This document shows, in pieces, positions 21,136 through 57,801 of a stretch of 64,000 nucleotides of DNA. A program made the translations under genes and the position numbers. The notes under the pieces are model-generated. The model had not been told where the DNA came from. It searched no databases and was given only the letters and a program-made list of their open reading frames with translations. Location: the NCBI GenBank assembly GCA_023701005.1, contig JAMPXW010000002.1, positions 113,053 to 177,052 of the forward strand, read 5' to 3'. Numbering within the stretch: position 1 is the first letter of the stretch; each line of letters opens with the position of its first letter. This DNA is from Burkholderiales bacterium. GTDB taxonomy: Bacteria > Patescibacteriota > Minisyncoccia > Phycocordibacterales > UBA9973.

Positions 21136-21169
21136 CATTGCAAAATTAATTTTGCAAATAAAATAACTT

Positions 21170-21189
21170 ATTTTCCGCCCTTAGCTGTT
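21170..21189 (+). repeat. 19-bp copy of the tRNA-Lys upstream/5' end (TTATTTTCCGCCCTTAGCT) not followed by a tRNA body
   Basis: identical to 21242-21260; downstream sequence does not fold as tRNA. Confidence 0.55.
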
Positions 21190-21248
21190 TTGGTAGGTAT
21201 ACAGCTAAATAAATGTTCTTTTGTTATAATGTTTCAATTATTTATTTT

Positions 21249-21321
21249 CCGCCCTTAGCTCAGCTGGTAGAGCAGATCCCTCTTAAGGATAAGGTCGAAG
21301 GTTCGATCCCTTCAGGGCGGA
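21249..21321 (+). tRNA. tRNA-Lys (CTT)
   Basis: acceptor CCGCCCT/AGGGCGG, D-arm GCTCAGCTGGTAGAGC, anticodon loop CUCUUAA, T-loop TTCGATC. Confidence 0.8.
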
Positions 21322-21367
21322 CACTTTAAAAATATTTTTAAAGTATTCGTTTTTAGTTTTTATATAT

Positions 21368-21451
21368 GCCGAGGTGGCGAAATTGGCAGACGCACTTGCC
21401 TTAGGAGCAAGCGAGAGTAATCTCATGGGAGTTCAAGTCTCCCCCTCGGCA
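21368..21451 (+). tRNA. tRNA-Leu (TAG), class II
   Basis: acceptor GCCGAGG/CCTCGGC, anticodon loop CUUAGGA, long variable arm, T-loop TTCAAGT. Confidence 0.8.
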
Positions 21452-21458
21452 CAAATTA

Positions 21459-25625: not shown

Positions 25626-27218
25626 TTAAAATCCAAACATATTTATACCTGCATTTGTATCAAACCCAACTATGTTTAATACCGTCTTTACTATCAAAAA
25701 TGCCCCCAGGGAAACAACTAATCCAATCAACACGTTTATAAATATATTTTTGGCTTTTGACTTTTTCTCTGTATCTCCACCTGATGTAACTAATTCAAAT
25801 CCTGCGTAGGCAAACAAAATTGCTGAAACAGGTAAAATAAATCCAAGGAAAAGATAATCCATAACTTTCTTTATCAAAGCAAAAATATCATTAAAACCAC
25901 AAGGGTTACTGATCATGCCACTCACATCTTCATAGCTTCCATTAATTTTACTATTTTTTAAATCACCTTCTTTGTTTCTAAAAGTATTTTCTGCATACCT
26001 CTCTGTTCCACAAGGTACTAATCCACCACTTACTTTATTACTATTATCTACATAAGCTGGGGCTTCTGTGGGCTTTACTTGTGTAGTGAATGCATGTGTA
26101 GCTGTGACATCAAAAAGTTCGGATGCATTTATCAATCTATATTGATATGGCGTACCAGAATTAAGATTGGTTAATTTAAAACTAGTTTTACCAAAACTAT
26201 CAATAACTAAAAAATCACTTTGAGTGGTTAATTCTCCTTCACCATATTCCAATTTTAATTTCAAACTTTGTCTATTTTCATTATATATATATGCATTAAA
26301 AACAGCTGAATTTTCTGTAATATCATCCATGGAAACACTCGCTAATATCGTCGAGCCTGTCGTACTTTTAGTAACAAAAAAACTTTGATTTGATGGTTTT
26401 AATCTTGAAGTTGTATCAAACAATCTAAAATAATATTTCTTTTCTGGTTTTAAATCTTTTAAAGTAGCAACCAAATCCCCCTTCGCATCAATCTTTAAAA
26501 TATCAGAAGAGAAATCAAAATTCTTTTCTCCATATTCTAATTTCAATTTCAAATCTTGGGGTTTTGTATTAGAAATCCTTGTCTTTATTTCTGCACTATT
26601 GTCTGTGACATTTATTAAAAAGTAACTATTTATAATCTGTGTAGGGTTATATTTTGAGTAAGAAGGCCCGACTCCATCTATGGGTCTACCATTAGCACCA
26701 ATGCTAATACCATAGGTATAAGGATAAGTATAACCAATAGGAATGTATCCTGTGCGAATGGTCATAACATCTCCATAAAACTTTTCTTCCGGTCTTTCGT
26801 TAAAATATCCAACTGCTCTAAAATAATAAGTAGAAAATAGATTCAACTCTGGACTTATATGGAAAACACCACTTACTTCTGGATTTAATTCTCTTTCTAT
26901 CTCTATTGTTTTCTGTATATCTTTCTCTGATTTAAGAAATAATTTTAATAAATCAGAAGAACTTAAATTTATATTGGTACTAGTATTTGTATCAGCTTTT
27001 TCAAATTCAAAATAAGTAGTAATATCTTCTTCATTTACATTACCACTATAATATCCACTAAACACAAAAGACTGTGCACTCAAAATAGAATAACCCGTAG
27101 TATATATTTTTAAATTATCTGTATTCTGAGCTGAAACTTTTGTATTAGAAATAAAAAATAATAAACCTCCTAAGACTAGGACTAAACTTAAAATTAATTT
27201 AATATTTATTTTCTTCAT
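25626..27218 (-). CDS. secreted protein with three FN3-like repeats fused to a C-terminal VirB2-like two-TM pilin module
   Basis: signal peptide; repeats '...LKLKLEYGE...YYFRLF'; C-term 'NPCGFNDIFALIKKV...FILPVSAILFAYAGFELVTSGGDTEKKSKAK...LIGLVVSLGAFLIV'. Confidence 0.5.
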   Translation of the reverse strand: MKKINIKLILSLVLVLGGLLFFISNTKVSAQNTDNLKIYTTGYSILSAQSFVFSGYYSGNVNEEDITTYFEFEKADTNTSTNINLSSSDLLKLFLKSEKDIQKTIEIERELNPEVSGVFHISPELNLFSTYYFRAVGYFNERPEEKFYGDVMTIRTGYIPIGYTYPYTYGISIGANGRPIDGVGPSYSKYNPTQIINSYFLINVTDNSAEIKTRISNTKPQDLKLKLEYGEKNFDFSSDILKIDAKGDLVATLKDLKPEKKYYFRLFDTTSRLKPSNQSFFVTKSTTGSTILASVSMDDITENSAVFNAYIYNENRQSLKLKLEYGEGELTTQSDFLVIDSFGKTSFKLTNLNSGTPYQYRLINASELFDVTATHAFTTQVKPTEAPAYVDNSNKVSGGLVPCGTERYAENTFRNKEGDLKNSKINGSYEDVSGMISNPCGFNDIFALIKKVMDYLFLGFILPVSAILFAYAGFELVTSGGDTEKKSKAKNIFINVLIGLVVSLGAFLIVKTVLNIVGFDTNAGINMFGF

Positions 27219-33750: not shown

Positions 33751-35061
33751 CTACGGAGCTGAAGTTATTGTCTCCCAAGTTGTAGTGTAAACATTTAATT
33801 TATTTGCTGTCGTATTGTAAATAACCATTCCGGCAGTTGGACTCGGAATCGCATCTCTCTGAGCCGTAGTCATTCGAGGAGGCATAAAAGCTTTGGTGGT
33901 ACTTGTTAAATCAACAATAGCATTTGCATTTGGACTCGTCGTCCCGATGCCGACGTTGCCATTGTTATTAATGAGCACTTTGTTATTCGCATATAAATAA
34001 TTGGACGTGCTCTCATTATATGCTGCAATAATTTGTTCATTGTCGTTATATAATCCTGATTCATTTGACGAAAAACTGCCTTTTGGTCTGATAGCGATCC
34101 CGCTAGAATAAAAACCGCCGCCTGAACCAACCTGGCCCTGTACTCCCAATGAATAATTTCCAAAGTCTTCATTGTAACTAGAGTTGCCGACCAATATGGT
34201 TTGGCCTGGTGTTGTTAATCTCATTCCGCCTTCAGGATCTATCCTTACGTAGCTGTTATAGTCAATAGTATCCCCGATGATCAATTGACCGATATTATTC
34301 CTATATATTTTCATGGATGAATAACCCAAAGGGTCGCTCCTTGTTTCCGGGAATTCAAATGCAACCAAATTATTAGTCCCGCCGACTGTAGCATTTCCTC
34401 GGAAGATCATAGTTCCATTTACATCTAACTTTGCTGCTGGTGCTGTAGTACCTATGCCGACGTTGCCGCTATTTGTAATTATCATTTTAGTTGCTTTGGT
34501 TCCAGTAGTGTTTGTGGTATCAAAAGTGATTTTAGTAGGAGTTATATTTGTACTTACTGTTCCATCCACCTTAAAATTTATTTCAGCTGCATCTTTATAT
34601 TGAGTTCCATCATGAGCTTGTGCCACCCAAGCCATTATAGTATCACCACTAACAACAGCTGTGGGACTAGCTGATGTACCCCTAGAACGTCCGATATGAA
34701 TAAAATTACCCATCCAACTAGTATCATTGTGTGCTTGTATTTTAACTTGATTGAGAGTATCTGCTTCAAAAAATATTGTTGGCGAAGAACTTGAAATAAC
34801 ATGCAGTTTCGCTGTTGGACTCGTAGTCCCTATCCCCACCTTCCCCGTCATCAAACCACCACCAATAATTATATTACCAGTAGTCGTAGTCGAACCTAGG
34901 TTAATATTTGAAGAAGCTTCACCATTTAGGTTAAGTGCTCCACTACTTGAAACAGTCAATGCTTCTAGTGTTAAGGCAGCATTGGCAAAACTTGCCCCTA
35001 TACCTAGAACCAAAAACAGGGCGACAATACCTATACTCACATATTTTAATTTTTTAGACAT
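33751..35061 (-). CDS. secreted Gly/Thr/Ser-rich surface protein with phage tail-fibre-like repeats
   Basis: signal peptide; repeated 'GNIIIGGG...GKVGIGTTSPTAKLHV', 'GNVGIGTTAPAAKLDV', 'GNVGIGTTSPNANAIVDL'; C-terminal 'MTTAQRDAI...GMVIYNTT'. Confidence 0.5.
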   Translation of the reverse strand: MSKKLKYVSIGIVALFLVLGIGASFANAALTLEALTVSSSGALNLNGEASSNINLGSTTTTGNIIIGGGLMTGKVGIGTTSPTAKLHVISSSSPTIFFEADTLNQVKIQAHNDTSWMGNFIHIGRSRGTSASPTAVVSGDTIMAWVAQAHDGTQYKDAAEINFKVDGTVSTNITPTKITFDTTNTTGTKATKMIITNSGNVGIGTTAPAAKLDVNGTMIFRGNATVGGTNNLVAFEFPETRSDPLGYSSMKIYRNNIGQLIIGDTIDYNSYVRIDPEGGMRLTTPGQTILVGNSSYNEDFGNYSLGVQGQVGSGGGFYSSGIAIRPKGSFSSNESGLYNDNEQIIAAYNESTSNYLYANNKVLINNNGNVGIGTTSPNANAIVDLTSTTKAFMPPRMTTAQRDAIPSPTAGMVIYNTTANKLNVYTTTWETITSAP

Positions 35062-35176
35062 ATACTATTATCCTGCAAGACTTTATGTAAAGCAGAATTA
35101 ATTAAATTAATAACAAAATAATTATAACTCCTATTGCCTTGACTTTAAATAGATGAAGTGGATAAAACTGTGTATA

Positions 35177-35208
35177 CAAAAAGCCCCCGCAGTAGCGGGG
35201 GCTTTTTG
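35177..35208. terminator. rho-independent terminator, GCCCCCGC-AGTA-GCGGGGGC, copy 2
   Basis: identical hairpin to 33691-33722. Confidence 0.75.
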
Positions 35209-35224
35209 TATTTTTAATTATTAT

Positions 35225-35842
35225 TTATGAACTTACTTTTCCTGCTATTAAATTCTCATCACCTATTTCATTCATTATGGAAATCACTTGATCTACGTAT
35301 TTAGGTACAATAGAAGGAGGATTGTAGGCTTTAAGTATTTCTCTAGTATTTTTATCAGCATAATGTCTCGCAGTATTAGGATTATTACCACCCAAGTTCT
35401 TAGCAACAGTTTCTATAGCTTGTTCATTAGATTTAAAACCTATCTTACAAGAACCCCAACCGAAAGAGTTATAAGTAGCTTTTATACAAGCAAACTTTCC
35501 TCCAGTAGATTCACGTACAGATATAGCAGCTAAAAGTCTCCAATCAAGGCCATTCTTCTCGGCTTCTTCTACCATTTTCTTACCCATGCCTTCCAAGGGC
35601 ATATCATGGTCTTTGAAATAAGTATCTATAGCTTCCGCTTTAGCCTTTAAATCTTTTGCCTCCTGGTCTAAAGCCTGGTTAAGGGCTAATACACCATCGG
35701 TCATATTCTCTTTTTGTATAAATACAGTTTGAATAGTCTCTTTCGCAGTATCTTTTATCATAGTTCCTAAAGGTACCGGCCCTGCCATAAGGGGAATAAA
35801 CATAAGAGATTGGGCAAACCGTATTAAATTGTTTTTATTCAT
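35225..35842 (-). CDS. secreted putative peptidoglycan hydrolase (glucosaminidase/lysozyme-like)
   Basis: signal peptide; 'GLDWRLLAAISVRESTGGKFAC...NSFGWGS' resembles glucosaminidase/FlgJ-type motif. Confidence 0.35.
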   Translation of the reverse strand: MNKNNLIRFAQSLMFIPLMAGPVPLGTMIKDTAKETIQTVFIQKENMTDGVLALNQALDQEAKDLKAKAEAIDTYFKDHDMPLEGMGKKMVEEAEKNGLDWRLLAAISVRESTGGKFACIKATYNSFGWGSCKIGFKSNEQAIETVAKNLGGNNPNTARHYADKNTREILKAYNPPSIVPKYVDQVISIMNEIGDENLIAGKVSS

Positions 35843-36215: not shown

Positions 36216-37529
36216 TTATAATTTAAAAACTTTTTCAGCTACTTTATAGGCCTCTCCTGCCCCCATAGTCACAAATACATCATTCTCTCCTAAGTTTAAA
36301 TCCTTTATGAAGATCTCAGCTGAAGCAAAATCAGGAAAAGCCTTGGCTCTATCACCTGCTAGTGATATAGCTGAAGCTAGCTTTTCGCTAGAAATACTCT
36401 CATCTTTAACTTCTCTGGCAAAAAAGATAGGCAAAAGATAAATATTGTCTGCCCCCTTAAAACATTTTGCAAAATCATTAAAGAGGGCTTTTGTCCTACT
36501 ATAAAGGTGTGGCTGAAACAAAATCGTAATCTTTTTATCCCCTATTTTGTAAATTTCCCTTAAAGCTTCTATACTTGCCTTTATTTCTGTGGGATGATGG
36601 GCATAATCATCATAAATGATAGTTCCTGTGCTCGTCTTGCCCTTTTTCTCTAATCTTCTCCAAGTCCCAGAAAATTGAGCAATGGACTTTTGAGCATCTT
36701 CATCTTTTATATTAAAAATATTAGCAACAGCCAACGCAGCTGCAGCATTCAAACGATTGTGTATTCCTGGGACAGATAAATCTGGGACTTTGTCTATGTA
36801 ATGTGTATAATTAATCACCTTTGCTTTATATTTCTTTTTTAAAATATTATTAACTGATACTTGATTTAAATTACAAACAATATAATTGTCTGTCTTGTCT
36901 GCCAAATCAGCAAAAGCATCCTCGATGTCATTCAAATCTTTATAATAATCTAAATGATCTTCTTCTATATTTGTAATCACTAAAATTTTTGGTTTTAAAT
37001 TCAAAAAAGATCTTTCATATTCGCAAGCTTCGACGACAAAAGCACTACCTTTGCCTATCACTAAATTAGAATTATTTTCTTTCAACAAAGAACCGACGAT
37101 GACTGAAGGATCTTTATGATTATCAATCAATATCTTGGCTATCATGGCTGTCGTCGTCGTTTTGCCGTGAGTTCCTGATACAGCTATGGTGTATTTATGT
37201 TTTGTCACGATACCGAGCATCTCTGGATAAGATCTAATCGGTATTCTTTGCTGGCTTTTTATTTTTGAGAAAAATTCCGGATCATAATTAATGATAGCTG
37301 TCGTGTAGACAATCAATTCAACATCTTTTGGTATATCTTCATATGATTGACCTACCGTTATCTTTGCCCCCATTTTACGCAAACTTTCTACTACTATTCC
37401 TTCTTGCATATCCTGTCCTGTGACATCTTTCTTTTCATCTATCATTATGCGCGCAATCGCCGAAATACCTATTCCACCTATCCCTACAAAGTGCACATGT
37501 TTAATTTTTGATAAATCCAATTCTTCCAT
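36216..37529 (-). CDS. murC: UDP-N-acetylmuramate--L-alanine ligase
   Basis: 'HFVGIGGIGISAIARIM' MurC N-terminus, Mur ligase P-loop 'VSGTHGKTTTTAM'. Confidence 0.85.
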   Translation of the reverse strand: MEELDLSKIKHVHFVGIGGIGISAIARIMIDEKKDVTGQDMQEGIVVESLRKMGAKITVGQSYEDIPKDVELIVYTTAIINYDPEFFSKIKSQQRIPIRSYPEMLGIVTKHKYTIAVSGTHGKTTTTAMIAKILIDNHKDPSVIVGSLLKENNSNLVIGKGSAFVVEACEYERSFLNLKPKILVITNIEEDHLDYYKDLNDIEDAFADLADKTDNYIVCNLNQVSVNNILKKKYKAKVINYTHYIDKVPDLSVPGIHNRLNAAAALAVANIFNIKDEDAQKSIAQFSGTWRRLEKKGKTSTGTIIYDDYAHHPTEIKASIEALREIYKIGDKKITILFQPHLYSRTKALFNDFAKCFKGADNIYLLPIFFAREVKDESISSEKLASAISLAGDRAKAFPDFASAEIFIKDLNLGENDVFVTMGAGEAYKVAEKVFKL

Positions 37530-37530: not shown

Positions 37531-38892
37531 TTATTTAAGTTTTTTTATTATCTTCAAAAATAAATCATTTCTTTCATATTCATTATTAAATTGTCCAAAA
37601 GATGCAAAGGCTGGAGAAAATAATATTATGTCGCCTTTCTTTGATTGTTTAATAGCTTCTTTCACAGCTTCGTTTAGATCTTTAACCAGCAAACTATTTT
37701 TTAATTTAAACTTATTATTTAATTCATCTGTTCCAGTCCCTGGTATCATTATAATCCCTTTACAATATTTATTCACAACCTTAACAAAATCTTCCAAGGG
37801 AAGCTTTTTGTCTGCTCCACCACAAATTAAAATAACTCTCTTTTCTTCCCCGAAGCCAGGGTTAGGGGAAACTTTTACAGACAAAGCTTCGATACCTGCC
37901 ATTGTCGCTTCTGGGGTAGTAGCATTGTTGTCGTTATATATTTTTACACCTTTTATCGTCTTTATGTATTGAAGTCTGCCTTCTAATCCTTTAAAATTCT
38001 TTATTGCTTTAGCTATTTTAGAAATAGGAATATTAAATTGTTCTGCCACTTTCACAGCGCATGCTAGATTTTCTTTCTGATATTTACCAGGAACAATAAA
38101 ATTGTATTTATCTACATCTTTCGCATCTACAATTATCAATTTACCTTTCGTATCACCTTTCTTTATAAAATCTTTCATTCCTTCACGGATAATTAAAATA
38201 TCATTCTCTTTTTGAAATTTAAAAATATTCGCTTTATCATCAAAATATCTTTCCATGGAATTACCATAATAATTCATATGATCAGGCATAAAAGAAGTAA
38301 AAACAGAAATATGTGGAGATAGTTTGGAATCGCCGAAGCCTTGCAATTGCCAAGAATCAAGTTCGCAGACCAAAATATCTCCTTCTTTTACTTTTTTAAG
38401 AAGAGGCAAAGTAGCAACACCTCTCACATTACCTCCAATAAATACATTGCGTTTCAGGAATTTTTCATTTTGTTTTAAAATCTCATAGATAAGTGCTGTT
38501 GTCATGGATTTACCTCTAGTGCCTGTTGCCCCTATCAACATAACTTCTGGCGCACTTTTTGCAAACAAAGAGACGTCCATTTCTATGGGAATATTATTTT
38601 TAACTGCTTCTTTTATATAAATAGAATCTATGGGGACGCCTGCTGCTTTCATTATTAGATCTCTATTTTTAAAATCTTCTAATCTATGTTCCCCAAGAAC
38701 AAATTTAATATTTTTATATTTAGATAAAACTTTTACAGAACTTTCAATTTGTTCTTTTGTTTTAAGATCAGTCACTATTAAATCTGCACCACATTCTGCA
38801 AAAAATTTGGTATAACCTAGGCCACGCCCCAAAAGACCCAATCCCATGATCGTAATCTTTTTCCCTTTAAATTGTTTTTTATAATCTATCAT
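37531..38892 (-). CDS. murD: UDP-N-acetylmuramoylalanine--D-glutamate ligase
   Basis: 'KKITIMGLGLLGRGLGYTKFFAECGADLIVTD' MurD N-terminus; 'GATGTRGKSMTT' P-loop. Confidence 0.8.
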   Translation of the reverse strand: MIDYKKQFKGKKITIMGLGLLGRGLGYTKFFAECGADLIVTDLKTKEQIESSVKVLSKYKNIKFVLGEHRLEDFKNRDLIMKAAGVPIDSIYIKEAVKNNIPIEMDVSLFAKSAPEVMLIGATGTRGKSMTTALIYEILKQNEKFLKRNVFIGGNVRGVATLPLLKKVKEGDILVCELDSWQLQGFGDSKLSPHISVFTSFMPDHMNYYGNSMERYFDDKANIFKFQKENDILIIREGMKDFIKKGDTKGKLIIVDAKDVDKYNFIVPGKYQKENLACAVKVAEQFNIPISKIAKAIKNFKGLEGRLQYIKTIKGVKIYNDNNATTPEATMAGIEALSVKVSPNPGFGEEKRVILICGGADKKLPLEDFVKVVNKYCKGIIMIPGTGTDELNNKFKLKNSLLVKDLNEAVKEAIKQSKKGDIILFSPAFASFGQFNNEYERNDLFLKIIKKLK

Positions 38893-38895: not shown

Positions 38896-40569
38896 TTAAA
38901 TAACTTCTTTCTGATAACACTTTTCACAATACATAATCGGAGCCACTTCCTCAGTCAAATTTGTATAACATACTTTATTACAATTTGAACAATTGCGATT
39001 AAAAAACTTAAATGAGCCCCTACGAACTATACGGCCTTTATGCCTACAATAAAAGCACCTTCTTGGTATTGGCAAAATCATTTTACGATAAAAAGTAAGC
39101 TCTTGCATAGTTATCTTATAATTGCGATCACATTCTATACACTTAAACACTTCATTCACAACCGAATCTTTTATATCTTTGATATGATCTGGAATTTCTT
39201 CCGGGCTCATTGTTTCTTTGCCTGTTGTCATCTGTATATCTTCTTCCCATCTAAAACCTTGTGCCAAGGCTTCTTCTTTGGTTAAAGGCATATTATCTTG
39301 CCCAACTGTTTCATTATAAGCAAAAGGTGATATTTCTGGAGACATTATTAATCCATACATATCATCTTTTATTAATTCATCTATTATTTTATTTTTTAAT
39401 CTTTCATATTCATCCTTTTCATATTCCTTATTTAAAATAGCATATTGTCCATCTTTTAATGCATCACAACCAATACAATCCTTACATCTTCTTAAATCGA
39501 AACTATTTAAAATATTACTACAATTCTCAGCCCAATATGACCCTATAATATTATTGGAATGTCCTGTAGCAACAACTTCCAGCAAGCATTCTGATTTTGT
39601 CCCAAAACCAATTGTACCTATAGAATCTTTAATTAATTTTGAAGAAAAAATATAACGACAATTTTCTGACATAGCTACTTCAAATGAATTATGAATATTC
39701 TTACACTCAGAAAGATAATCCCCCGTAGAATCCACCGTCTTTAAATTGTTATTCTCTTTTCGTGGAAGTGTTTTACAAAATTCTATAAATTTTTTCTTGG
39801 CTTCTTCCATCTTTTTATAACTTCCCTTTATTTCTTTTATTTTCTTTTGATATTCTTCCGCGCTTAATTGTTCATTAAAATAACAATTACTTTTATTACG
39901 CAAATTTACACAGCCAAAACAATTTGTAAGTCCACTGCCGTTTAGAATAAACATGGAATCTAAGCAATTACTTATATTTTGACCCCATAATACTCCTGAT
40001 GATTCTTGGGCATTTATACATTCATAACAACGCTCAAATTTTACTCCAAAATAGACATCTGAAGAATCAAGACCATATCTCATTCCTCTCGAATATAATA
40101 ATTCTTCAGCTGGACCTCCATTAAAAACAAGATAACAATTCTTGCAAGCACTAATCATATTTGTATATTCACTATTTATACTAACTCCTCCTCCAGAAGA
40201 TGTCCCTAAATTAATTTTGGGGACTTTGATTAAAAGCTCTTTAAATTGGTCTAAAAATGAACGTGATTCATCGTACTCCATGGCATAATCTTTTGCATTC
40301 CATTTATCAGAATAAAAACAATCATAACAATAAATCTTATAAGGAGATTTAGGATTATACATAGATATAACAGATTTATTACACATATGACATTTTCTTC
40401 CTGTATATAATGTAGTTTCATTTCTCCACATCGCACGCATCTTAAAACGACAATCTGGGCAAAAATTTGGAGGAGGAACCTTCATTTTTTCATAAAAAGA
40501 AAAATCATCTTGTTCTAAAACAAAATCATTTTTACATTTATTACATTTTTTTATTTCAGATTCTTTCAT
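38896..40569 (-). CDS. 557-aa cysteine-rich protein: homologous N- and C-terminal zinc-ribbon modules flanking a CxxC/NC-repeat core; embedded between murE and murD
   Basis: N-term 'CNKCKNDF...FYEKMKVPPPNFCPDCRFKMRAMWRNE...CHMCNK...YCYDCFY' and C-term 'CIECDRNY...FYRKMILPIPRRCFYCRHKGRIVRRGS...CSNCNK...YCEKCYQ'; 13-nt and 3-nt gaps to neighbours. Confidence 0.6.
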   Translation of the reverse strand: MKESEIKKCNKCKNDFVLEQDDFSFYEKMKVPPPNFCPDCRFKMRAMWRNETTLYTGRKCHMCNKSVISMYNPKSPYKIYCYDCFYSDKWNAKDYAMEYDESRSFLDQFKELLIKVPKINLGTSSGGGVSINSEYTNMISACKNCYLVFNGGPAEELLYSRGMRYGLDSSDVYFGVKFERCYECINAQESSGVLWGQNISNCLDSMFILNGSGLTNCFGCVNLRNKSNCYFNEQLSAEEYQKKIKEIKGSYKKMEEAKKKFIEFCKTLPRKENNNLKTVDSTGDYLSECKNIHNSFEVAMSENCRYIFSSKLIKDSIGTIGFGTKSECLLEVVATGHSNNIIGSYWAENCSNILNSFDLRRCKDCIGCDALKDGQYAILNKEYEKDEYERLKNKIIDELIKDDMYGLIMSPEISPFAYNETVGQDNMPLTKEEALAQGFRWEEDIQMTTGKETMSPEEIPDHIKDIKDSVVNEVFKCIECDRNYKITMQELTFYRKMILPIPRRCFYCRHKGRIVRRGSFKFFNRNCSNCNKVCYTNLTEEVAPIMYCEKCYQKEVI

Positions 40570-40582: not shown

Positions 40583-41842
40583 TTATTTCAATACTTTCTT
40601 ATATTCCTCTATATCATCAAAATGATTTTTTACCCCTTTTATTTCTTGATAATCTTCATGACCTTTCCCAGCACAAAGAACAATATCACCACTCTTTGCT
40701 AATTTTACAGATTCTTCTATAGCTAGACGACGATCTACTATCGTAATTACTTTATTATTTTCTTCATGCGTCAAATCATCTTTCATATTTTCTATAATTT
40801 TTTCAGGATCTTCTCCTCTTGGATTGTCTGAAGTAAATATCGCAATATCAGATAAGCTCGCCCCGATCTTCCCCATTTTAGGGCGTTTTATAGGATCACG
40901 ATCTCCTCCACAACCAAACACAGATATGACCCTACTACCTTCTTTTTTTATTTCTTTTATCGTAGACAAAACATTTTCTAATGCATCGGGTGTATGAGCA
41001 TAATCTACAACAACAAGTACCCCATCTTTAGACATAAAATGTTCAAACCTGCCCTTGGGTGGCATTATGTTTTCTAAGCTCTTGTTTACATTTTCAGTAT
41101 CAAAATTTAAAAGTTTACAAACACTCCATACTGCCAATAAATTGTAAGCATTAAATTTTCCTAAAAGTTTCGTGTTTATAATTCTATTTTCTGGCATATT
41201 TTTCTGATGAAATTCTAAGCCAAGACCAGAAAAATCAGACCTTTTTATTTCTCCAAAGAAATCAGAAAAAAGAGCACGATTACCATATCTATAAAAATAA
41301 TTTTTTGCTTTTATTCCATCCAAGATTATTTCTCCATGATCGTCGTCTATGTTTGATAAAGCAAAAGCATCTTTCTGCAACATTTCAAAAAATTTCTTTT
41401 TAGCTTTAAAATAATTTTGTAAATCTTTATGATAATCTAAATGATCGTGTGTAAGATTTGTAAATACTCCTCCTGTAAATCTGACACCAGCAACCCTATT
41501 TTGATCTAAAGCATGAGAAGAAACTTCCATAAAAACATATTCACAATCTGCATCTACCATCTTTTTAAAAAGTTTAGTTAGAGATACAGAATCAGGAGTA
41601 GTGCTAGGAGCCTTATCATCATGTGGCAAAACATCAAAACCTATAATATTTTCTACTGTACTAATGAGCCCAGCCTTATGACCCAAGTCTGTGGCGACTT
41701 TATAAAGCAATGTAGCTGTCGTCGTCTTGCCGTTTGTGCCCGTCACTCCTATTATTTTTAATTTCTTAGATGGATTACCATAATAATATCTAACTACAAA
41801 TGATTTCACTCTCCACCAAATCTTTTTAAAAACTTTTTTCAT
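40583..41842 (-). CDS. murE: UDP-N-acetylmuramoyl-tripeptide ligase MurE (short form)
   Basis: 'IGVTGTNGKTTTATLL' P-loop, MurE-specific 'DNPR' motif ('FTSDNPRGEDP'). Confidence 0.8.
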   Translation of the reverse strand: MKKVFKKIWWRVKSFVVRYYYGNPSKKLKIIGVTGTNGKTTTATLLYKVATDLGHKAGLISTVENIIGFDVLPHDDKAPSTTPDSVSLTKLFKKMVDADCEYVFMEVSSHALDQNRVAGVRFTGGVFTNLTHDHLDYHKDLQNYFKAKKKFFEMLQKDAFALSNIDDDHGEIILDGIKAKNYFYRYGNRALFSDFFGEIKRSDFSGLGLEFHQKNMPENRIINTKLLGKFNAYNLLAVWSVCKLLNFDTENVNKSLENIMPPKGRFEHFMSKDGVLVVVDYAHTPDALENVLSTIKEIKKEGSRVISVFGCGGDRDPIKRPKMGKIGASLSDIAIFTSDNPRGEDPEKIIENMKDDLTHEENNKVITIVDRRLAIEESVKLAKSGDIVLCAGKGHEDYQEIKGVKNHFDDIEEYKKVLK

Positions 41843-41843: not shown

Positions 41844-42101
41844 TTATTTTTTTCTTGGTTTTATTAAAATTTTTTGATTAATTTTTTTAAATCTTTCAAC
41901 TTTTTTACCTTCTACTTTTATACTTTCCAAAAACATCTTCTTGGAACGAACCCAAGTAGCCCCATCTTCTAAATGAATATAAATAACGACTGGCTCCAAG
42001 CTTTCACTATCAAAAGCCTCGCCTAAAATTTTAACTTTAGTCCCCTTATAATGCTTATATATAGCACCAATTTCTAACTTTTTCATAGAATTATTATACA
42101 A
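41844..42101 (-). CDS. DUF1653-family small protein
   Basis: 'YKHYKGTKVKILGEAFDSESLEPVVIYIHLEDGATWVRSKKMF' matches DUF1653 pattern. Confidence 0.55.
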   Translation of the reverse strand: MYNNSMKKLEIGAIYKHYKGTKVKILGEAFDSESLEPVVIYIHLEDGATWVRSKKMFLESIKVEGKKVERFKKINQKILIKPRKK

Positions 42102-47237: not shown

Positions 47238-48176
47238 TCACAATACCTTTTTATTTAAAGCTCTTTCTAGAATATGGTGAAAAACATGTTCTATTTTTGC
47301 ACCAACCATTTCACAAGATTGTCGCAAGTGCGACTCTTCTCTCGGGTCAGGTAATGAATCAATGCTTAAAAGAAAATAACCTCTTTTAGAATGTAAAACA
47401 AAATCTGATTTTAAATAATTATCTATTCCTAAATGATTGTGTAAGCTTTTCACTAAAGAAAATAATTCTTCTTTTTCTTTTTGTAAAAAATCTTTATGTG
47501 TATTAACTAAAGGAAAAGTATATATATCTTCTCCGCGAAACCCTGGTACAGAATGCACAGAAGCAATCTTTCCTGAAATAAATTCTTCTATCAAAATACT
47601 TTTTTTATGAGCCACACCATCTCTAATAGATTCTACTAATTCTGGAAAGGTCTTTGCCAGATGTATACCCATATTCTTATCTTCTGTAAAAGATTTAACT
47701 ATCCATGGAGCTCCAAATTTATTTAATACTTCCGTTGCCTTTTTGACGACATATTCTGCTTCTTTACCATCAAAATCTTTTTGATATAAAGGCAAAAGAA
47801 TCGATCTAGGTATTTTAATACCTGTCCCTTTCATATGCTTATCTAGCATATCTGTATTATTTTCTAAAGTTTTCAAAAAAGATCCATTATTTATACTAGG
47901 TAAAGACAAATGATTTACTGTAGAAGATAATGCTGGATTTTTAGATGTATTCCATACAATATCAACTTTATTAATCAAATCCATTGGATTAATCAAAATA
48001 CCATTTATATGCCAATTATTTTTTTTATCAACAAAAATATCTACATGTTTATATTTTTCTGATAGATTTTCAAAAATATGTGAAATTATATCTCCACCTT
48101 TACGTAAAGAAATGAAATGGTGTTCCCCTTCTCCACCACGTAATATTCCGACTCGTATTTTGTTTTCTTTTTCCAT
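47238..48176 (-). CDS. ddl: D-alanine--D-alanine ligase
   Basis: 'KIRVGILRGGEGEHHFISLRKG' Ddl N-terminus; ATP-grasp core; 312 aa. Confidence 0.7.
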   Translation of the reverse strand: MEKENKIRVGILRGGEGEHHFISLRKGGDIISHIFENLSEKYKHVDIFVDKKNNWHINGILINPMDLINKVDIVWNTSKNPALSSTVNHLSLPSINNGSFLKTLENNTDMLDKHMKGTGIKIPRSILLPLYQKDFDGKEAEYVVKKATEVLNKFGAPWIVKSFTEDKNMGIHLAKTFPELVESIRDGVAHKKSILIEEFISGKIASVHSVPGFRGEDIYTFPLVNTHKDFLQKEKEELFSLVKSLHNHLGIDNYLKSDFVLHSKRGYFLLSIDSLPDPREESHLRQSCEMVGAKIEHVFHHILERALNKKVL

Positions 48177-49826: not shown

Positions 49827-51365
<1,539 letters not shown>

Positions 51366-51749
51366 CTAAAAGTTTAAATTACAAAGTAATTTACCCTTCA
51401 TAGTTCCGTTAGGAACGTAGTAGGGTTATTAATTCTGCTTCGCATAAAGCTACACAGAATAGATTTTACTTCATAAAATCTAGAACGAAACAAAACAAAA
51501 AACAGCATTTACTTAAGTATTTTTTGTCATTCGTTAGAGTTTAATATTTGCTCTAAAAATTATTCTACTTACTCAAAAAACATATTGAGACTTGCTACCC
51601 AATCTGATCTTATAGATTGGGGTTCTCAAGTTATTAACTTGTCAAAGATTGAAACAAAAACGCCCTATCAAATTGGTAGAGACGCTCAGGGGAAAGTATA
51701 TATCAAGCCGACTTCTATGTCAAGCACATAATTAACCTAAAAATACCTA

Positions 51750-51893: not shown

Positions 51894-53108
51894 CTACTCA
51901 CAAGTCACTTCGTGGATCAATATATTATTATTCTCATTGGATTCTTCTATTTCTGAACTACCCCAGCCACAAGCATTATCTGCACAAACTTTAAGTGTAA
52001 ATTTATCTCCCTTCGAACAAATTGGAATCCACCAATCATTGTCAGTAGGAGGAGAACTAAATACCTGATATCCAAACAAAGTTGGACCAACGGCAGAACC
52101 GACACCCAAACTTCCAAAATACCAAGAACCAGCTTCATACTGATTGTTGACTGTCATTCTCACTGTACCTGCTCTTCCCGCAGAAACTTCTCCAATATTT
52201 TTTTCTATAAAATTAAAAACTGGTTTTGATCCGCTCTTCACCGTCGTTGCCCATGTGCCAACTTTCTCAATCACAAAGTCTGGTTTTTTACTACAATCTA
52301 CAAAAACATCTCCGGAGATTTCATTATTATTTTCACTAACTTCAGTTAAACCATTACCACCATCTACTTTAAAAACATAATGATTATTACCACAAGCTGG
52401 CCCATCCCAAATTTCAAAATTACTTGGAAGACTAATATTAGTATTAAGATAAGAACTTAAATCATAAGTACCATTTGAACTTGTTCTTAAAATTGAAAAT
52501 ATTTTTTTCTTAACTTCATAAGAAGAATTATAAAAAACATAATCATATTCCTTTTTACCTAAGTTAAGAATTTTTGCATTTAATGTTATAAATTTGCCTT
52601 GAGAAACTTCAGTGGGCCAAATACCAACTTTCTGAACACTCAAATCAAAATCATTAACACTGAGTGTATTTGGTATCGTTGGTTGAGATATATTATTTAT
52701 ATCTTCTCCATAAGAAGATTTTACTACCACATTAAAAGATGCACTTGCTTCCCCGCTATTACAATCTGAAACACCTAGTTTAACATTATATGTACCAGCC
52801 TTTGACCATCCATGACTTATTCTCAAATATGTATTTGCTTCTTTAGCAGGACAAACCTTGGAAAAAGAAGAACCATCTCCCCAATCCATAGACCAAGCCA
52901 AATTGTCACCATCAGGATCTCTAGCCTTGAAATTAAAAATCACTGGATCATCTGTATAAGCTACACATGATTGCCCTTTTATTAATTTATAACCTGAGAC
53001 AGAAGAACAATCAGGTAGAGAATTTTGCGCATCTAAAAAATTAATTTTAAAAACAAAAAAACTCAACACAAAAGCTACAACAAAAAACAATAATGTGTAT
53101 TTCTTCAT
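51894..53108 (-). CDS. secreted protein with PKD and CARDB-like domains
   Basis: signal peptide; 'NLAWSMDWGDGSS...GTYNVKLGVSD' PKD; two 'xVxKVGxWxTxVxxG' CARDB-like segments. Confidence 0.6.
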   Translation of the reverse strand: MKKYTLLFFVVAFVLSFFVFKINFLDAQNSLPDCSSVSGYKLIKGQSCVAYTDDPVIFNFKARDPDGDNLAWSMDWGDGSSFSKVCPAKEANTYLRISHGWSKAGTYNVKLGVSDCNSGEASASFNVVVKSSYGEDINNISQPTIPNTLSVNDFDLSVQKVGIWPTEVSQGKFITLNAKILNLGKKEYDYVFYNSSYEVKKKIFSILRTSSNGTYDLSSYLNTNISLPSNFEIWDGPACGNNHYVFKVDGGNGLTEVSENNNEISGDVFVDCSKKPDFVIEKVGTWATTVKSGSKPVFNFIEKNIGEVSAGRAGTVRMTVNNQYEAGSWYFGSLGVGSAVGPTLFGYQVFSSPPTDNDWWIPICSKGDKFTLKVCADNACGWGSSEIEESNENNNILIHEVTCE

Positions 53109-53130: not shown

Positions 53131-56100
53131 TTATTTCAAGAAAGCACGTGAAAGAGGCCCAAATACACCATCTACCACAAGCCCATTCTTAGCTTGAAAA
53201 GCTTTAACGGCTTTTTCTGTAGCCTTGCCAAAGAAATTTGTCTCTTTTCCTTCTTCTATGCCTTCAACCTTAAAACCATTTCTGTTTAACAATCTCTGAA
53301 GGCATTTTACTTGAGGATCTGTCTTCCCATTTTTCAAAATTATATTAAATTCTCCACAACTTAATTCTTGAGTTTTTACTTCATTTTTTATGGTATTCGT
53401 TTCTTGTTTTTCTTTTGTATTTTTAACATCATCGAAAGCATCCAAGGCACTTGCCATTAAAGATGGCTTGGATGATGCATTCGCAGTAGAACAAGACAAA
53501 TTATATTTAGTTAAAAGATAAGAAACATCAGCACTATTTACAGAACCATTTCTATCTGCATCAGCTCTGTTTTTCTGATCATCTGTAAAAGTTGTCGTTC
53601 CGACAAGGTATTGCATAATCATTGTCGTATCTTTACAATCCACGATACCATCTCCGCTCACATTTCCAAAGACTACTTCTGAAACAGCACATGTGGTATA
53701 ACCTGGAGTTACTGAACTTGACACCCTAGATTCACCCGCACTATTGTAGGCAACTATATTATATGAATATGTAGTATTACATTGAAAACCTGCTAAATCA
53801 GAATATGTTGTAACATTTGGACCAAGTGTAGCTAATAAAGAATTATTTTTATATATTTTAAAACCTGTTTCATTGTTTGAAGTATCTGTCCATGCAAAAT
53901 TTATTGAACTTGTACTAGCACTAGTGATGCGGAAACTTGCAGGTGTCAAAGGCAATTCTACTGGTATTACTTGAGTGCCTACAGTTATCTTTGCAGAAGC
54001 AGAAGCTCCTCCTCCAGCACCAATACATGTAAGAGTGTAATTCTTTGATGAAGTTAGATAATATCCTGCAACCTCACTTCCACTTGTTGCAGATTTTGGA
54101 CCTGACCAATCACCTCCTGCTGTACAAGATGTCGCATTCTTCACTACCCAATTGATCGTCGCCGTACCATTGTAAGATACTGAATCTGGAGAAGTGAAGA
54201 AAGAAATAACAGGAAGAGGAACGACGGGTGTTGTTTGTGGCAAAACATTTATTGTCACATAACTCGTCCCACTTGTGCCACCCGCGCCAGTACATTTAAG
54301 TGAAAAAGTTGTTGTTTTTGTCAGACTGCCTGTAAGCATATTTCCAGATGCAGTTTTGATACCTTCGTATGTACCATCACTTGCTGTACAAGATGTCGCG
54401 TTAATCGAGCTCCAATACATATTCGCCGTGCTTCCATAATCAACTGTCGTTTTATCTGAATAAAAATAACTTACAACTGGAACTGGAAGAGAAGGAATAG
54501 TATTACCTATAACCGTTATACTTAAATTTTTAGAATCACTTTGACCACTAGCATTTGTAGCACTAAATGAAGCTGTATATGTTCCTGCTGTACTATATGT
54601 ATGTGTGAAAGTAGAAGATGGCATAAATGATTGTCTTTGACCATCTCCCCATTCGACTGTATAAGAAACAGCTGTAGTACTATATGCATTTATTTTCCAT
54701 GTACCCGCAGTATTTGCATTGATCGATGTAGGTCCTGATACATCTGAAATATGTGGAGCGGTTGTACTTGTTTTTTGTAAACAAACACCATCCCCTGCTC
54801 CATATTCACATTTTATATTAGTATTTGTTGCATAACTAATACCATTTGTTGTAGTAGGGTCAGTACAAATCCATTCTATGACATAAGAATAACCATCTCC
54901 ATAAAAATTAGCTGGACGAACTGAGTCTGTTTGGTTCTTCATTATTCCATCTGTTCCTAATCCACTTATTGTTCCTTTTATATATTCATTATTCCCATCA
55001 GTATCTAAACAAGCAACAGATGGTTGTTTTTTAGGAACAAGAGTAAGTGTAGCAATATCTGATTTTACTCCTGAACTATTCACACATTGTAGTGTATATT
55101 TTTTTGTCGAAGTTATACTAGCCGTAGGCATACTTCCAGAAGTGGCCTTTAAACCAGAATATGTTCCATCACTTGCTGTACAAGATGTCGCATTAGCAGA
55201 AGCCCAATGTATCGTGACTGTCTCACCATATACTACTTCACCTGGCGTGGTCTGAGGTAGGTAGTAGAAAGAAGTTATTGTAGGAGTTGTGGTGTTTGTA
55301 GAAATGATAGTGAATGTCCCATTACTTTTAAATAAATCTGAAGAACTAACTGATCCATTTAAATTCGTTTCATAAAAGGCATTTATTGTATATTGTCCAG
55401 CTGGCATATTTACAGGAAATGTATACTGCATTGAACCAGAAGTATCAGGATTATTTTGAACTCGTGCGGAAGTTGAGTAAGTAGAATCATTTTTATAAAA
55501 ATTTATATAAGTAAGTCCTGGAGCACCCGGAGTCCATTTAATTGTTATCGTCTGACCTGCTGAAAAAATATCACCAACTTTTGGTGAAAGAACAGATATA
55601 GAAGAAACGCCTACTTTAACAGAAACACTAGCTGATCCAGTTTTTCCATTACTATTAGTAACAAAAAATTTTGGTCCGTATGTACCTGCTTTTAAATAAT
55701 AATGTGTAAAAGTTGCCGATTGTTGAGATGATCGCCAAGCTTCACTAGCATCAGTATCTCCGTCATCTCCCCAGCTAACATAATATGTAAGATTTCCAAC
55801 ACTTGAATCAGAAGCATTTACTGTCCAAGTCCCTGTTTGATTTACATTTAATGTTTGTGGACCAGAAACACTTAAAACGACAGGAGTAGTTGTAGTTTCT
55901 TCCACTTTCACACTCAAGCTTGTCTGTGTACTTTTTCCACTACTATTTGTGACAGTAAATGTCGGATTATATGTTCCAGCTTTACTATATGAATGAATGA
56001 ATGTCGCTGTTTGTCCTGTTTGTTCTGGTGTGTATGCCATAGCACAACTAGCCCCTGAAGGACATGTAAGTGTGACATCTCCCCAATTTACAGAGTATGT

Positions 56101-56595
56101 CAAATTTCCACCAGTTTTATCAGAAGCTTTTATTGTCCATTTTCCATTTTGTCCTATATTTAATGTCTGAGGACCTGTCGCACTCAAAATTGAAATTTCA
56201 TTTGTAATAGGGTCTTTATCTGGATCAACAACTATCTCCCCTCCACAAGAAGCACTTTTTATTTTTGCTTTCGTCGCTGGACCCACATATCCTGTAGGAC
56301 TAATATTATTATCTTTTTGAAAATCTTTTACGGCTTTAAGAGTTAAAATTCCAAAATATCCAGTCGGTTCTGAATTCAAATATCCCTTAACTTGCAAAAA
56401 ATCTTGAAGAAGAGAAACTTCCCCATTTGTATTTGCATCTCGTGCTCTATATCTCAAACCAGAACTTTGCAAAGAGATACAATCTGATGCTGTAGGATTA
56501 GGATCGACATCCCCTACTTGTGCAAAAGAGAAACTTGGGATAACAAGAACAGTTAGAAACAAAACTGAAAGAAAACCCAATATGTATTTTTTCAT
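53131..56595 (-). CDS. 1154-aa cell-surface protein: PG-binding domains at both ends, multiple PKD repeats, FN3, dockerin-like repeat
   Basis: 'LQDFLQVKGYLNSEPTGYFGILTLKAVKDFQ' and 'AVKAFQAKNGLVVDGVFGPLS' (PG_binding_1); '...WGD...AGTY...VTNS.GKS' x3 (PKD); 'DADRNGSVNSADVSYL' (dockerin). Confidence 0.65.
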   Translation of the reverse strand: MKKYILGFLSVLFLTVLVIPSFSFAQVGDVDPNPTASDCISLQSSGLRYRARDANTNGEVSLLQDFLQVKGYLNSEPTGYFGILTLKAVKDFQKDNNISPTGYVGPATKAKIKSASCGGEIVVDPDKDPITNEISILSATGPQTLNIGQNGKWTIKASDKTGGNLTYSVNWGDVTLTCPSGASCAMAYTPEQTGQTATFIHSYSKAGTYNPTFTVTNSSGKSTQTSLSVKVEETTTTPVVLSVSGPQTLNVNQTGTWTVNASDSSVGNLTYYVSWGDDGDTDASEAWRSSQQSATFTHYYLKAGTYGPKFFVTNSNGKTGSASVSVKVGVSSISVLSPKVGDIFSAGQTITIKWTPGAPGLTYINFYKNDSTYSTSARVQNNPDTSGSMQYTFPVNMPAGQYTINAFYETNLNGSVSSSDLFKSNGTFTIISTNTTTPTITSFYYLPQTTPGEVVYGETVTIHWASANATSCTASDGTYSGLKATSGSMPTASITSTKKYTLQCVNSSGVKSDIATLTLVPKKQPSVACLDTDGNNEYIKGTISGLGTDGIMKNQTDSVRPANFYGDGYSYVIEWICTDPTTTNGISYATNTNIKCEYGAGDGVCLQKTSTTAPHISDVSGPTSINANTAGTWKINAYSTTAVSYTVEWGDGQRQSFMPSSTFTHTYSTAGTYTASFSATNASGQSDSKNLSITVIGNTIPSLPVPVVSYFYSDKTTVDYGSTANMYWSSINATSCTASDGTYEGIKTASGNMLTGSLTKTTTFSLKCTGAGGTSGTSYVTINVLPQTTPVVPLPVISFFTSPDSVSYNGTATINWVVKNATSCTAGGDWSGPKSATSGSEVAGYYLTSSKNYTLTCIGAGGGASASAKITVGTQVIPVELPLTPASFRITSASTSSINFAWTDTSNNETGFKIYKNNSLLATLGPNVTTYSDLAGFQCNTTYSYNIVAYNSAGESRVSSSVTPGYTTCAVSEVVFGNVSGDGIVDCKDTTMIMQYLVGTTTFTDDQKNRADADRNGSVNSADVSYLLTKYNLSCSTANASSKPSLMASALDAFDDVKNTKEKQETNTIKNEVKTQELSCGEFNIILKNGKTDPQVKCLQRLLNRNGFKVEGIEEGKETNFFGKATEKAVKAFQAKNGLVVDGVFGPLSRAFLK

Positions 56596-56688: not shown

Positions 56689-57801
56689 TTATTTACCTAA
56701 AATAATAGCTGCAATATCTGGAAAATGTTCTGTATAATCACCAAAGATTTGTTCTCCGAAAGCATCCACTTCAAATTTCTCCCAAGTTATTTTCTCTTTA
56801 AAACCTGCTCCTGAATATGAACCAAAGCTCATAGGTGAAGAATGTATTTCGATAAATCCTGCCCAAGAACGTACTATCTTTTCTTGCATCTCTTCTGTCT
56901 CTTCCGCGAGAAAATCTTTTTTAATATGTGGAACAACACAAATAGGAAAATCAGCAGCTATACCACCACCCAATTGTAAAAATGCTAAGCCTTTTTCTTT
57001 TGTATTATCCATATACCATTCTGCCAATCTGTGCATGTAACGGAATGAATGCGAGACAACTTCCGGGCTAATTGGTTTTTCTAATTTATATTTAGATAAT
57101 AGTGGATGATCACCATTATAAGATGCTTGAGTGAAAATATTTCCCATTGTTGAATCTTCTACCCCCGGCACAAAGACTGGAATTTTATTTAAAAATGCTT
57201 GATAGAGCCAACACTCATCAGGATTTGCTGTAGGGTCAAAAGTTATAAGTTTCTTTTCGAAAAGTTGGAAAAAATATTCGTGCCACAATAATGGTTTATT
57301 ATTTTCTTCAGCTTCACGCCATAATTTTTCTAATTCTGGTAAAACCACTCTAACTGATTCATCTTCTGGTAAAAATGTATCTGTGATTCTACGAAGTCCC
57401 GCTCTTGCTAATTCTTTTTCTTCCGCTCTGGTTAATTCAACATAATCTGGGATATAGGCATAATGACTATTTGCTACGAGTCTATACAAACTTTCTTCCA
57501 AATTAGCTCCTGTCACAGAAATAGCTGCTATCTTCCCAGCTCTTATAAGCTCAGATATCATGATACCTTGTTGGAAAGAAGAACCAGCGCCCGACATAGT
57601 CAAAAATATCTTCCCTCCTTCATCTGTGTGTTTTTTGAGCCAAAGACCAGCATTTACAGTCTTTCCACCATTACAATGCCTTTTTGTATTTACGAGCCAA
57701 TTGGTAATAGGTGTTTCGGAATTAGGTTTATAATTCCTCTCACCCATGAAAATTTTTGCTTGTAATTCTTTACTTAAAGATGATATTTTTTGTTGTGACA
57801 T
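56689..57801 (-). CDS. deoxyhypusine-synthase-like (DHS family) protein
   Basis: 370 aa; 'IFLTMSGAGSSFQQGIM...ISVTGANLEESL...LGGGIAADFPI' resembles DHS NAD-binding fold motifs. Confidence 0.4.
   Translation of the reverse strand: MSQQKISSLSKELQAKIFMGERNYKPNSETPITNWLVNTKRHCNGGKTVNAGLWLKKHTDEGGKIFLTMSGAGSSFQQGIMISELIRAGKIAAISVTGANLEESLYRLVANSHYAYIPDYVELTRAEEKELARAGLRRITDTFLPEDESVRVVLPELEKLWREAEENNKPLLWHEYFFQLFEKKLITFDPTANPDECWLYQAFLNKIPVFVPGVEDSTMGNIFTQASYNGDHPLLSKYKLEKPISPEVVSHSFRYMHRLAEWYMDNTKEKGLAFLQLGGGIAADFPICVVPHIKKDFLAEETEEMQEKIVRSWAGFIEIHSSPMSFGSYSGAGFKEKITWEKFEVDAFGEQIFGDYTEHFPDIAAIILGK

Follow-up and report, generated by a model that had tools for sequence, protein, structure and literature searches.

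In a stretch of 64,000 nucleotides from contig JAMPXW010000002.1 (NCBI assembly GCA_023701005.1), referred to here as the window, a gene on the minus strand between positions 38896 and 40569 encodes a cysteine-rich protein of 557 residues and is placed between the genes for the Mur ligases MurE and MurD. We find that the group of orthologues to which this protein belongs, termed group A, is the most widely conserved member of a Patescibacteria-specific family, and that its location among mur genes appears to be specific to certain lineages. In our view, the odds are evenly balanced that the group A protein acts without enzymatic activity as a scaffold or adaptor in an ATPase-driven machine that is still undescribed and that its position next to mur genes carries no meaning for the cell wall; any specific substrate assigned to this machine would be far less probable. 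The gene starts with ATG and ends with its own TAA stop codon at 38896..38898 (-). It is a real gene, with the identical protein (100%) found in two assemblies, an NCBI metagenome-assembled genome (MAG) and an independent Logan assembly.

Architecture of the 557-residue protein

The protein appears to be built of two types of duplicated elements, zinc modules at both ends and β-solenoids in between, which are encoded as follows:

38896..40569, minus strand: whole gene of the group A orthologue, coding for the probably cytosolic, Cys-rich protein of 557 residues (from the list of open reading frames, ORFs)
40285..40569, minus strand: N-terminal double zinc module, residues 1-95, basic with an isoelectric point (pI) of 8.9 (CxxC pairs; zf_Tbcl in relatives)
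39865..40209, minus strand: predicted β-solenoid A, residues ~121-235 (AlphaFold2 model, predicted local distance difference test, pLDDT, 66-97; hexad CxxCxx register)
39760..39864, minus strand: predicted basic helical hairpin past solenoid A, residues 236-270, pI 9.6 (DSSP helices 237-247 and 251-265)
39430..39759, minus strand: predicted β-solenoid B, residues ~271-380 (four-residue strands with a period of six)
39160..39429, minus strand: predicted helix 385-401 and conserved acidic linker, residues 381-470 (model and alignment; motif PFAYNET...PLTKEEA...GFxWE)
38899..39159, minus strand: C-terminal double zinc module, residues 471-557, basic with a pI of 9.3 (CxxC pairs, finger models and hhalign)

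The protein contains 33 cysteines, sixteen of which form the CxxC pairs of the end modules, at positions 9/12, 37/40, 60/63 and 81/84 on the N-terminal and 477/480, 505/508, 527/530 and 548/551 on the C-terminal side. An original prediction, made from the letters of the window, had described these modules as homologous with four CxxC pairs each, and our comparison confirms it, with E-values of 1e-13 in BLASTP and 2.9e-30 in a profile-profile alignment, so that their likeness is far beyond chance. In the N-terminal module, a zf_Tbcl-type treble clef (C9/C12/C37/C40), which is followed by an Arg-rich helix (R41/R45), constitutes the predicted first site and a CxxC-x17-CxxC arrangement (C60/C63/C81/C84) the second. 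The C-terminal module repeats this organization, with site 1 (C477/C480/C505/C508) preceding an Arg helix (R509/R513) and site 2 (C527/C530/C548/C551) corresponding to zf_Tbcl_2 or CxxC-x17-CxxC. The protein terminates in a tail with the sequence Y-Q-x-E-V-[YIV], which is conserved in all paralogue groups of the family.

On the window protein itself, the model zf_Tbcl (PF13451) remains sub-threshold at 14.9 bits compared to a cut-off of 24 (E=0.027), and zf_Tbcl_2 (PF23477) was not reported in the Pfam scan. Among 73 diverse family members, zf_Tbcl_2 is found above threshold in 39 and zf_Tbcl in 23, and no Pfam families other than these two predicted treble-clef fingers were recognised. In a paralogue, zf_Tbcl maps to the first zinc site (residues 5-44), and zf_Tbcl_2 matches the final CxxC-x17-CxxC, right at the C-terminus. 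These finger families are recognised by two CxxC knuckles of typical spacing with flanking motifs (F-Y-x-K...P-x-P-x2-C-x2-C-R; CxxC-x17-CxxC). All 16 of the 16 ligand cysteines of the window protein reside at the expected spacing and align with members that pass the models, and we thus assign the end modules to the predicted treble-clef families zf_Tbcl and zf_Tbcl_2 (TIGR04272), with one finger of each type in either module. The spacing of the TIGR04272 'CxxC-x17-CxxC domain' is matched exactly at 60/63-81/84 and at 527/530-548/551. Each of these models spans about 40 residues and has no assigned function, and together they leave the core of about 350 residues uncovered. LIM domains, such as those of CRP1 and CRP2, similarly contain two consecutive four-ligand zinc sites within about 60-90 residues, but their sites are two residues apart compared to about 19 here, where all ligands are Cys and none is His, in contrast to the LIM consensus C-x2-C-x16-23-H-x2-C-x2-C-x2-C-x16-21-C-x2-(C/H/D). 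With the LIM model PF00412 matching only 1 of the 73 members (E=0.0067) and a weak LIM-like profile match in the Protein Data Bank (PDB) confined to the C-terminal finger (E=1e-3), this likeness is one of fold class and not of membership.

For the core, a first AlphaFold run with 36 sequences of at least 62% identity had yielded a poor model (pLDDT 64). The model used here, which is based on an alignment of 146 sequences of 31-58% identity, is confident (pLDDT 90.7, predicted template modelling score 0.91) and places the N-terminal zinc module, a helix (residues 105-115), solenoid A, the helical hairpin, solenoid B, a further helix, the acidic linker and the C-terminal zinc module in succession. 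Solenoid A contains a conserved C217-x2-C220 in its last rung and an Asn cap (N232); solenoid B contains a conserved C365-x2-C368 and an invariant Asn (N380). The core is itself duplicated, with residues ~130-247 and ~278-395, each encompassing a solenoid and a helix, aligning in hhalign with E=4.9e-35. The zinc modules are basic (pI ~9), the solenoids mildly acidic and the linker (residues 403-470) strongly so (pI ~4.1). No transmembrane segment is found in the 557 residues, where the maximum 19-residue hydropathy (KD19) reaches 0.98, and no solved homologue of the confidently predicted fold was identified.

The repeated CxxC and N-C motifs that had been noted in the core proved genuine and obey a strict hexad register, and the two narrow solenoids are lined with Cys and Ser. 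At most core Cys positions, Cys is exchanged for Ser, Val, Leu, Ile or Gly in other members; the core contains on average 14 Cys in group A and 19 in other groups, and only C145, C217, C220, C365 and C368 are conserved in at least 85% of group A. A role of the core Cys as small packing residues of a very narrow solenoid thus fits better than one as obligate metal ligands. Small interior packing residues are known for narrow 12-15-residue β-helices, and the Tenebrio antifreeze protein provides an example of a narrow, non-enzymatic β-solenoid with a Cys ladder. The Cys-ladder antifreeze helices of insects and plants are secreted, braced by disulfides and equipped with a regular TxT ice-binding face, and the protein is not one of them. 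Similarly, the curli subunit CsgA (8c50), the ryegrass ice-binding protein (3ult) and the spruce budworm antifreeze protein (1m8n) resemble the core in fold class only, with 6-8% identity amounting to no sequence similarity. These proteins are secreted and lack zinc-finger caps, whereas the protein studied here would be cytosolic and contains a duplicated pair of solenoids with a helix behind each of them, with Cys exchangeable for Ser, Val or Leu.

Columns conserved in at least 85% of 204 family members contain no His and consist mostly of Cys, aromatic residues, Gly, Pro and Asn, and the conserved charged residues of these members match no known catalytic motif, in agreement with the earlier statement that no enzymatic motif is recognisable. 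The protein is probably cytosolic and non-enzymatic.

Paralogue arrays and gene neighbourhood in relatives

Searches with the single protein retrieved from NCBIfam only the Elf1 zinc-ribbon, below threshold (E=0.0015, 18 bits compared to a cut-off of 109), and nothing significant from PDB sequences; as judged from these profiles, no curated family covers the protein. Its relatives comprise more than 3,622 clusters at 90% identity, and an exhaustive profile search returned 4,254 clusters at 50% identity, 1,750 of them with E-values of 1e-30 or lower. Nearly all members found in the profile search are 545-597 residues long and match end-to-end, and the best 120 matches are 62-80% identical over their full length. 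The named matches are all hypothetical proteins and, apart from the Burkholderiales-labelled record of the window itself, all originate from Patescibacteria (Paceibacterota, Nomurabacteria and others), with the taxonomic breadth being taken from record titles, some of which are unreliable. These records point to a large, uncharacterised family that is restricted to Patescibacteria. We found no description of it in the literature on its finger domains or in family surveys of the candidate phyla radiation (CPR), one of which refers to Parcubacteria-enriched families only as 'primarily hypothetical proteins' (PMC6744442). The profile and structure searches that had been proposed along with the original prediction have recovered the paired zinc fingers and the repetitive core, and they lead to this uncharacterised family instead of a known enzyme family.

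In 81 loci, we counted 227 family copies, which frequently form tandem arrays on the same strand, with 10 copies within 17.6 kb in locus L054, nine in L045 and seven in L078. The paralogues of an array are 30-40% identical to one another, and in two MAGs two loci each add up to 9-10 copies per MAG. Clustering of 204 full-length copies at a distance cut-off of 55% defined about 32 groups; just 16 of the copies duplicate a member of their own group in the same locus, and the arrays therefore appear to consist of ancient distinct paralogues and not of recent amplifications. Group A accounts for 72 members in this sample, about one per locus, a count that is no measure of how widespread the group is, since the loci were picked by similarity to the window protein. 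In the loci L005 and L006, group A proteins are 72-75% identical to that of the window, compared to 67-75% for MurE, MurD and MurC, which indicates that purifying selection on group A is as strong as on the Mur ligases of the same relatives. The arrays of four loci also contain ORFs of about 210 residues (cluster 16, e.g. L004 13383..14018 and L020 16298..16921), for which no match was found in Pfam or NCBIfam.

In the window, the three neighbours of the gene are, by their profile scores, unambiguous Mur ligases:

40583..41842, minus strand: murE, 419 residues, upstream neighbour, context only (Pfam; NCBIfam TIGR01085, 1e-133)
37531..38892, minus strand: murD, 453 residues, downstream neighbour, context only (Pfam; NCBIfam TIGR01087, 4e-87)
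36216..37529, minus strand: murC, 437 residues, context only (Pfam; NCBIfam TIGR01082, 2e-121)

The ORF coordinates reproduce the order and the gaps that had been reported, with 13 nucleotides separating the TAA of murE from the ATG of the gene, three nucleotides separating its TAA from the ATG of murD, and murC starting one nucleotide past the end of murD. Pfam scans of each listed window ORF of at least 205 residues also bear out that MurF, MraY, FtsW and MurG are absent among these ORFs; a Ddl-like gene is located at 47238..48176. The co-directional string around the gene contains secA, a MazG-like gene, two NUDIX genes, a deaminase-like gene, DUF1653, murE, the gene itself, murD and murC, and since this string mixes functions, tight packing tells little about function here. 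As a separate observation, MurE lacks the N-terminal domain PF01225, with its profile match extending from about position 90 onward. Because the DUF1653 gene (41844..42101, minus strand) ends one nucleotide upstream of murE, no N-terminal part has been overlooked. A short MurE (392-436 residues) is common to the closest relatives (L005, L006, L021, L030 and L038), and MurE has about 470 residues in more distant relatives with mur context.

The original prediction had taken the tight embedding in the operon as an argument for a role in the cell envelope or in division, and it had itself named a lack of conserved synteny in relatives as grounds against that view. We thus compared the window genes with 79 species-level loci, each including 8 kb on either side of a family gene. 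The order murE-X-murD(-murC) is preserved in 12 of these loci, of which L019, L024 and L065 contain two to three family copies between murE and murD, and those closest to the window share its upstream secA and its short MurE. In the remaining 67 loci no Mur ligase adjoins the family gene, two of them containing a lone MurC-like gene elsewhere within the 8 kb, and same-strand tandem arrays of paralogues constitute the dominant pattern. On a rough neighbour-joining tree of group A, mur context is limited to two or three clades of shallow depth, among them that of the window, whereas every major branch, down to the deepest, has members with ATPase context. The proposed envelope role has therefore not been borne out, and the mur position of the gene is best described, from these comparisons, as lineage-specific.

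Nor do the family-wide neighbours, namely paralogues, TraD/VirD4-like ATPases, dnaK and dnaJ, lend substance to the suggestion of a regulator or scaffold of Mur ligases. Clustering of all 918 ORFs of the 81 loci grouped 69 genes from 39 loci into a cluster of ATPases of the TraD/VirD4/DUF87 type, with DnaK (22 loci), DnaJ (19), Mur ligases (14) and RsmE (10) as further recurrent neighbours; other positions of family members are downstream of rpoD, in the interval from dnaK to dnaJ, and in arrays of family genes only. The ATPases are of two kinds. ATPase 1 is a soluble protein of about 630-830 residues with a Walker A motif near residue 42 and a CxxC-x17-CxxC finger near residue 456, which matches TrwB_AAD_bind, DUF87, TraG-D_C, zf_Tbcl_2 (3e-13) and TIGR04272 (3.5e-14). 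ATPase 2 has about 490-525 residues and no finger. The gene following the finger-bearing ATPase encodes a family member in 20 of 29 cases, mostly after a gap of one to four nucleotides, and for the finger-less ATPase the next gene is dnaJ in 18 cases. Taken in order, the block that recurs consists of dnaK, ATPase 1, group A (to which paralogues and rsmE may be added), ATPase 2 and dnaJ.

A proposed scaffold of an ATPase-driven machine and its alternatives

In the mechanism that we favour, the group A protein would serve as a rigid scaffold or adaptor, whose zinc-finger ends, perhaps together with the conserved C-terminal tail, would bind either the two ATPases or a ligand shared with them, nucleic acid for example, and which might assemble with paralogues into hetero-oligomers as part of an ATP-driven machine. 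With dnaK and dnaJ on its two sides, the cassette may be co-regulated with the chaperones. The place of the window gene inside murE-murD-murC would have come about by a lineage-specific rearrangement of a genome that is compact and co-directional. A more elaborate version for Patescibacteria of the Parcubacteria type, in which five to more than ten ancient paralogues form a cytoplasmic hetero-oligomer that is loaded, remodelled or powered by a dedicated pair of soluble ATPases, one of them having its zinc finger in common with the solenoid proteins, and in which the ATPase cassette is co-expressed with DnaK and DnaJ, is one that we offer tentatively and consider rather less probable. The closest functional analogy may be found in the pairing of an adaptor with a hexameric ATPase, as in type IV coupling proteins (TraD/VirD4/TrwB), which operate with adaptors such as TraM, or in ATPases of the HerA/FtsK type. 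The recurrent neighbours are TraD/VirD4-like and contain a TraG-D_C region; unlike TraD, VirD4 and TrwB, they lack a membrane anchor and occur as an invariable pair flanked by dnaK and dnaJ. In the neighbour clustering, genes for a relaxase, VirB4 or a channel did not recur near the family loci. Although its single parts are known fold types, the combination of domains, paralogue arrays and ATPase pairing matches no known system.

Several observations weigh against this proposal. The protein is linked to the ATPases solely by gene adjacency, and in about 40% of the group A loci neither ATPase nor mur genes are found within 8 kb. The window contains no ATPase 1, ATPase 2, dnaK or dnaJ, and the proposed partners, if present, would therefore lie elsewhere in the genome; the window also contains no family paralogue that is detectable by tblastn. 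The order murE-X-murD-murC with secA upstream is kept across species whose orthologues are 60-75% identical, which may reflect a lineage-specific link to cell-wall synthesis. Finally, the conserved charged residues D100, D171, E302, D315, K143, K381, R509 and R513 may be part of an unrecognised catalytic or ligand-binding site.

We consider it highly improbable that the protein is a regulator or scaffold of Mur ligases, or otherwise involved in the cell envelope or in division, by being co-translated with MurE, MurD and MurC and organising them. Such a role would agree with the short junctions, with the conserved gene order in 12 other species, which include relatives of only 56-63% identity, and with the loci containing several copies between murE and murD. 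It is difficult to reconcile with the 67 of 79 loci that have no mur genes near the family gene, the shallow distribution of the mur context compared to the deep one of the ATPases, the unrelated functions in the surrounding string and the other sites at which paralogues and orthologues occur, namely behind rpoD, flanked by dnaK and dnaJ, or in arrays made up of family genes alone. The fold offers no hint of binding nucleotide-sugars or peptides and, as far as gene order is concerned, genomes with ATPase context whose mur clusters lack the gene have already been seen. We also rejected the protein as a stand-in for MurF or MraY. It contains no Mur-ligase domain of the kind that defines these enzymes (the ATP-binding Mur_ligase_M with its P-loop, and Mur_ligase_C), with no Mur match in Pfam or NCBIfam at E-values up to 0.1 where its neighbours MurE, MurD and MurC score 1e-87 to 1e-151, and it displays neither the approximately ten transmembrane helices nor the PF00953 or PF01098 domains that characterize MraY and FtsW, having no membrane segment and no Pfam match. 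A related proposal, a divergent left-handed β-helix acyltransferase of the GlmU/LpxA/DapD type that acts on a cell-wall precursor, would account for the six-residue periodicity that the core has in common with hexapeptide proteins (LpxA, LpxD, GlmU and γ-carbonic anhydrase) and for weak structural matches that include GlmU, LpxA, LpxD, DapD and γ-carbonic anhydrases, and both GlmU and DapD feed peptidoglycan synthesis. With low Z-scores, no hexapeptide repeats ([LIV]-G-x2-[STAV]-x; PF00132/PF14602) and no catalytic His, we rejected it as barely conceivable.

An export of family members as cargo of the TraD/VirD4-like ATPases, recognised by their C-terminal tail and released or passed on to a secretion apparatus, for example to affect the host cell of these episymbionts, would explain why ATPases of the coupling-protein type with a TraG-D_C 'TraM recognition' region flank the family genes, why the extreme C-terminus is kept in all paralogue groups and why a genome holds so many paralogues; it is established that ATPases of type IV and type VII systems recognise C-terminal signals. 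We regard it as improbable, given that neither ATPase 1 nor ATPase 2 is membrane-anchored (maximum KD19 ~1.1), that channel components are missing among the recurrent neighbours, that the proteins are predicted to be tightly folded zinc proteins devoid of signal peptides, and that their paralogue groups are ancient and conserved instead of diversifying as effectors usually do. A further possibility concerns the solenoid Cys, which could bind additional Zn or Fe-S clusters, with C217/C220 and C365/C368, or the CxxCxxCxxC rungs of paralogues, as candidate ligands and a function in metal storage, thiol buffering or electron transfer. This would be consistent with paralogues that contain 11-29 core Cys in the CxxC hexad register, with the 85-100% conservation of C217, C220, C365 and C368 in group A and with a CxxCxxC-type motif at the end of each solenoid. 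The free exchange of core Cys, which is pronounced in group A with its mean of 14, the lack of any match to an Fe-S family model and the absence of Fe-S or metal-transport genes among the recurrent neighbours render it very unlikely. A role in defence or in mobile elements was rejected in view of the ancient paralogue groups and the lack of PADLOC or phage matches: PADLOC returned nothing for the window protein or two paralogues, PHROGs only E-values of 0.039 or higher, and the best match to BFVD structures (E=0.013) is restricted to a zinc finger.

Within the coding capacity of Patescibacteria that has no explanation, the family makes up one of the larger shares, and little is known of the cell biology of these organisms. 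In the two MAGs, the 9-10 or more copies would occupy about 1.5-2% of a genome of about 1 Mb, the usual size in this group; the one complete chromosome in our sample (OZ246418.1) measures 808 kb. That family members repeatedly occur beside conjugation-type ATPases and the DnaK and DnaJ genes suggests a machine so far undescribed. If the more elaborate version of our proposal is correct, this machine could handle nucleic acid or proteins and be central to a reduced, host-dependent lifestyle, and the window gene would encode its most conserved core subunit. The case also carries a warning that tight operon embedding is weak evidence for a shared function in the compact, co-directional genomes of CPR bacteria, with a cell-wall assignment that is compelling from a single window dissolving upon comparison with 79 relatives.

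Further features of the window

One window ORF, at 6218..7516 (-), was examined as a candidate partner ATPase and rejected, since its profile match covers only a membrane-anchored N-terminal accessory domain and contains no P-loop. The encoded protein of 432 residues has an N-terminal transmembrane helix and no Pfam match, and its homology is limited to the accessory domain at the N-terminus of ATPases of about 910 residues in L042 and L082 that resemble type IV coupling proteins. A protein of 530 residues (25626..27218, minus strand) weakly matches a type IV secretion pilin at its C-terminus (PF18895, E=2.5e-6).

The long co-directional string that holds the mur genes ends at a strong, terminator-like hairpin (35174..35211), a GC-rich palindrome of 17 bp located between the genes at 33751..35061 (-) and 35225..35842 (-). 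The 16S rRNA gene at 49827..51370 (-) is complete and isolated, with no 23S or 5S rRNA anywhere in the window, and the rRNA genes are therefore unlinked. Beyond it, the minus strand encodes a putative surface protein with PKD/CARDB domains (404 residues, 51894..53108), an adjoining putative surface protein that combines PG_binding_1, PKD, fn3 and dockerin domains (1154 residues, 53131..56595) and a deoxyhypusine-synthase-like protein (PF01916, E=1e-26; 56689..57801), the latter in a bacterial genome. A cluster of tRNA genes for Cys, Leu, Lys and Leu is located at 20912..21452 (+) and a separate tRNA-Tyr at 12535..12618 (-). With a GC content of about 31%, CPR-like gene content and close homologues that are all from Patescibacteria, the window is at odds with the NCBI label 'Burkholderiales bacterium' of the MAG, which is probably a taxonomic mislabel.

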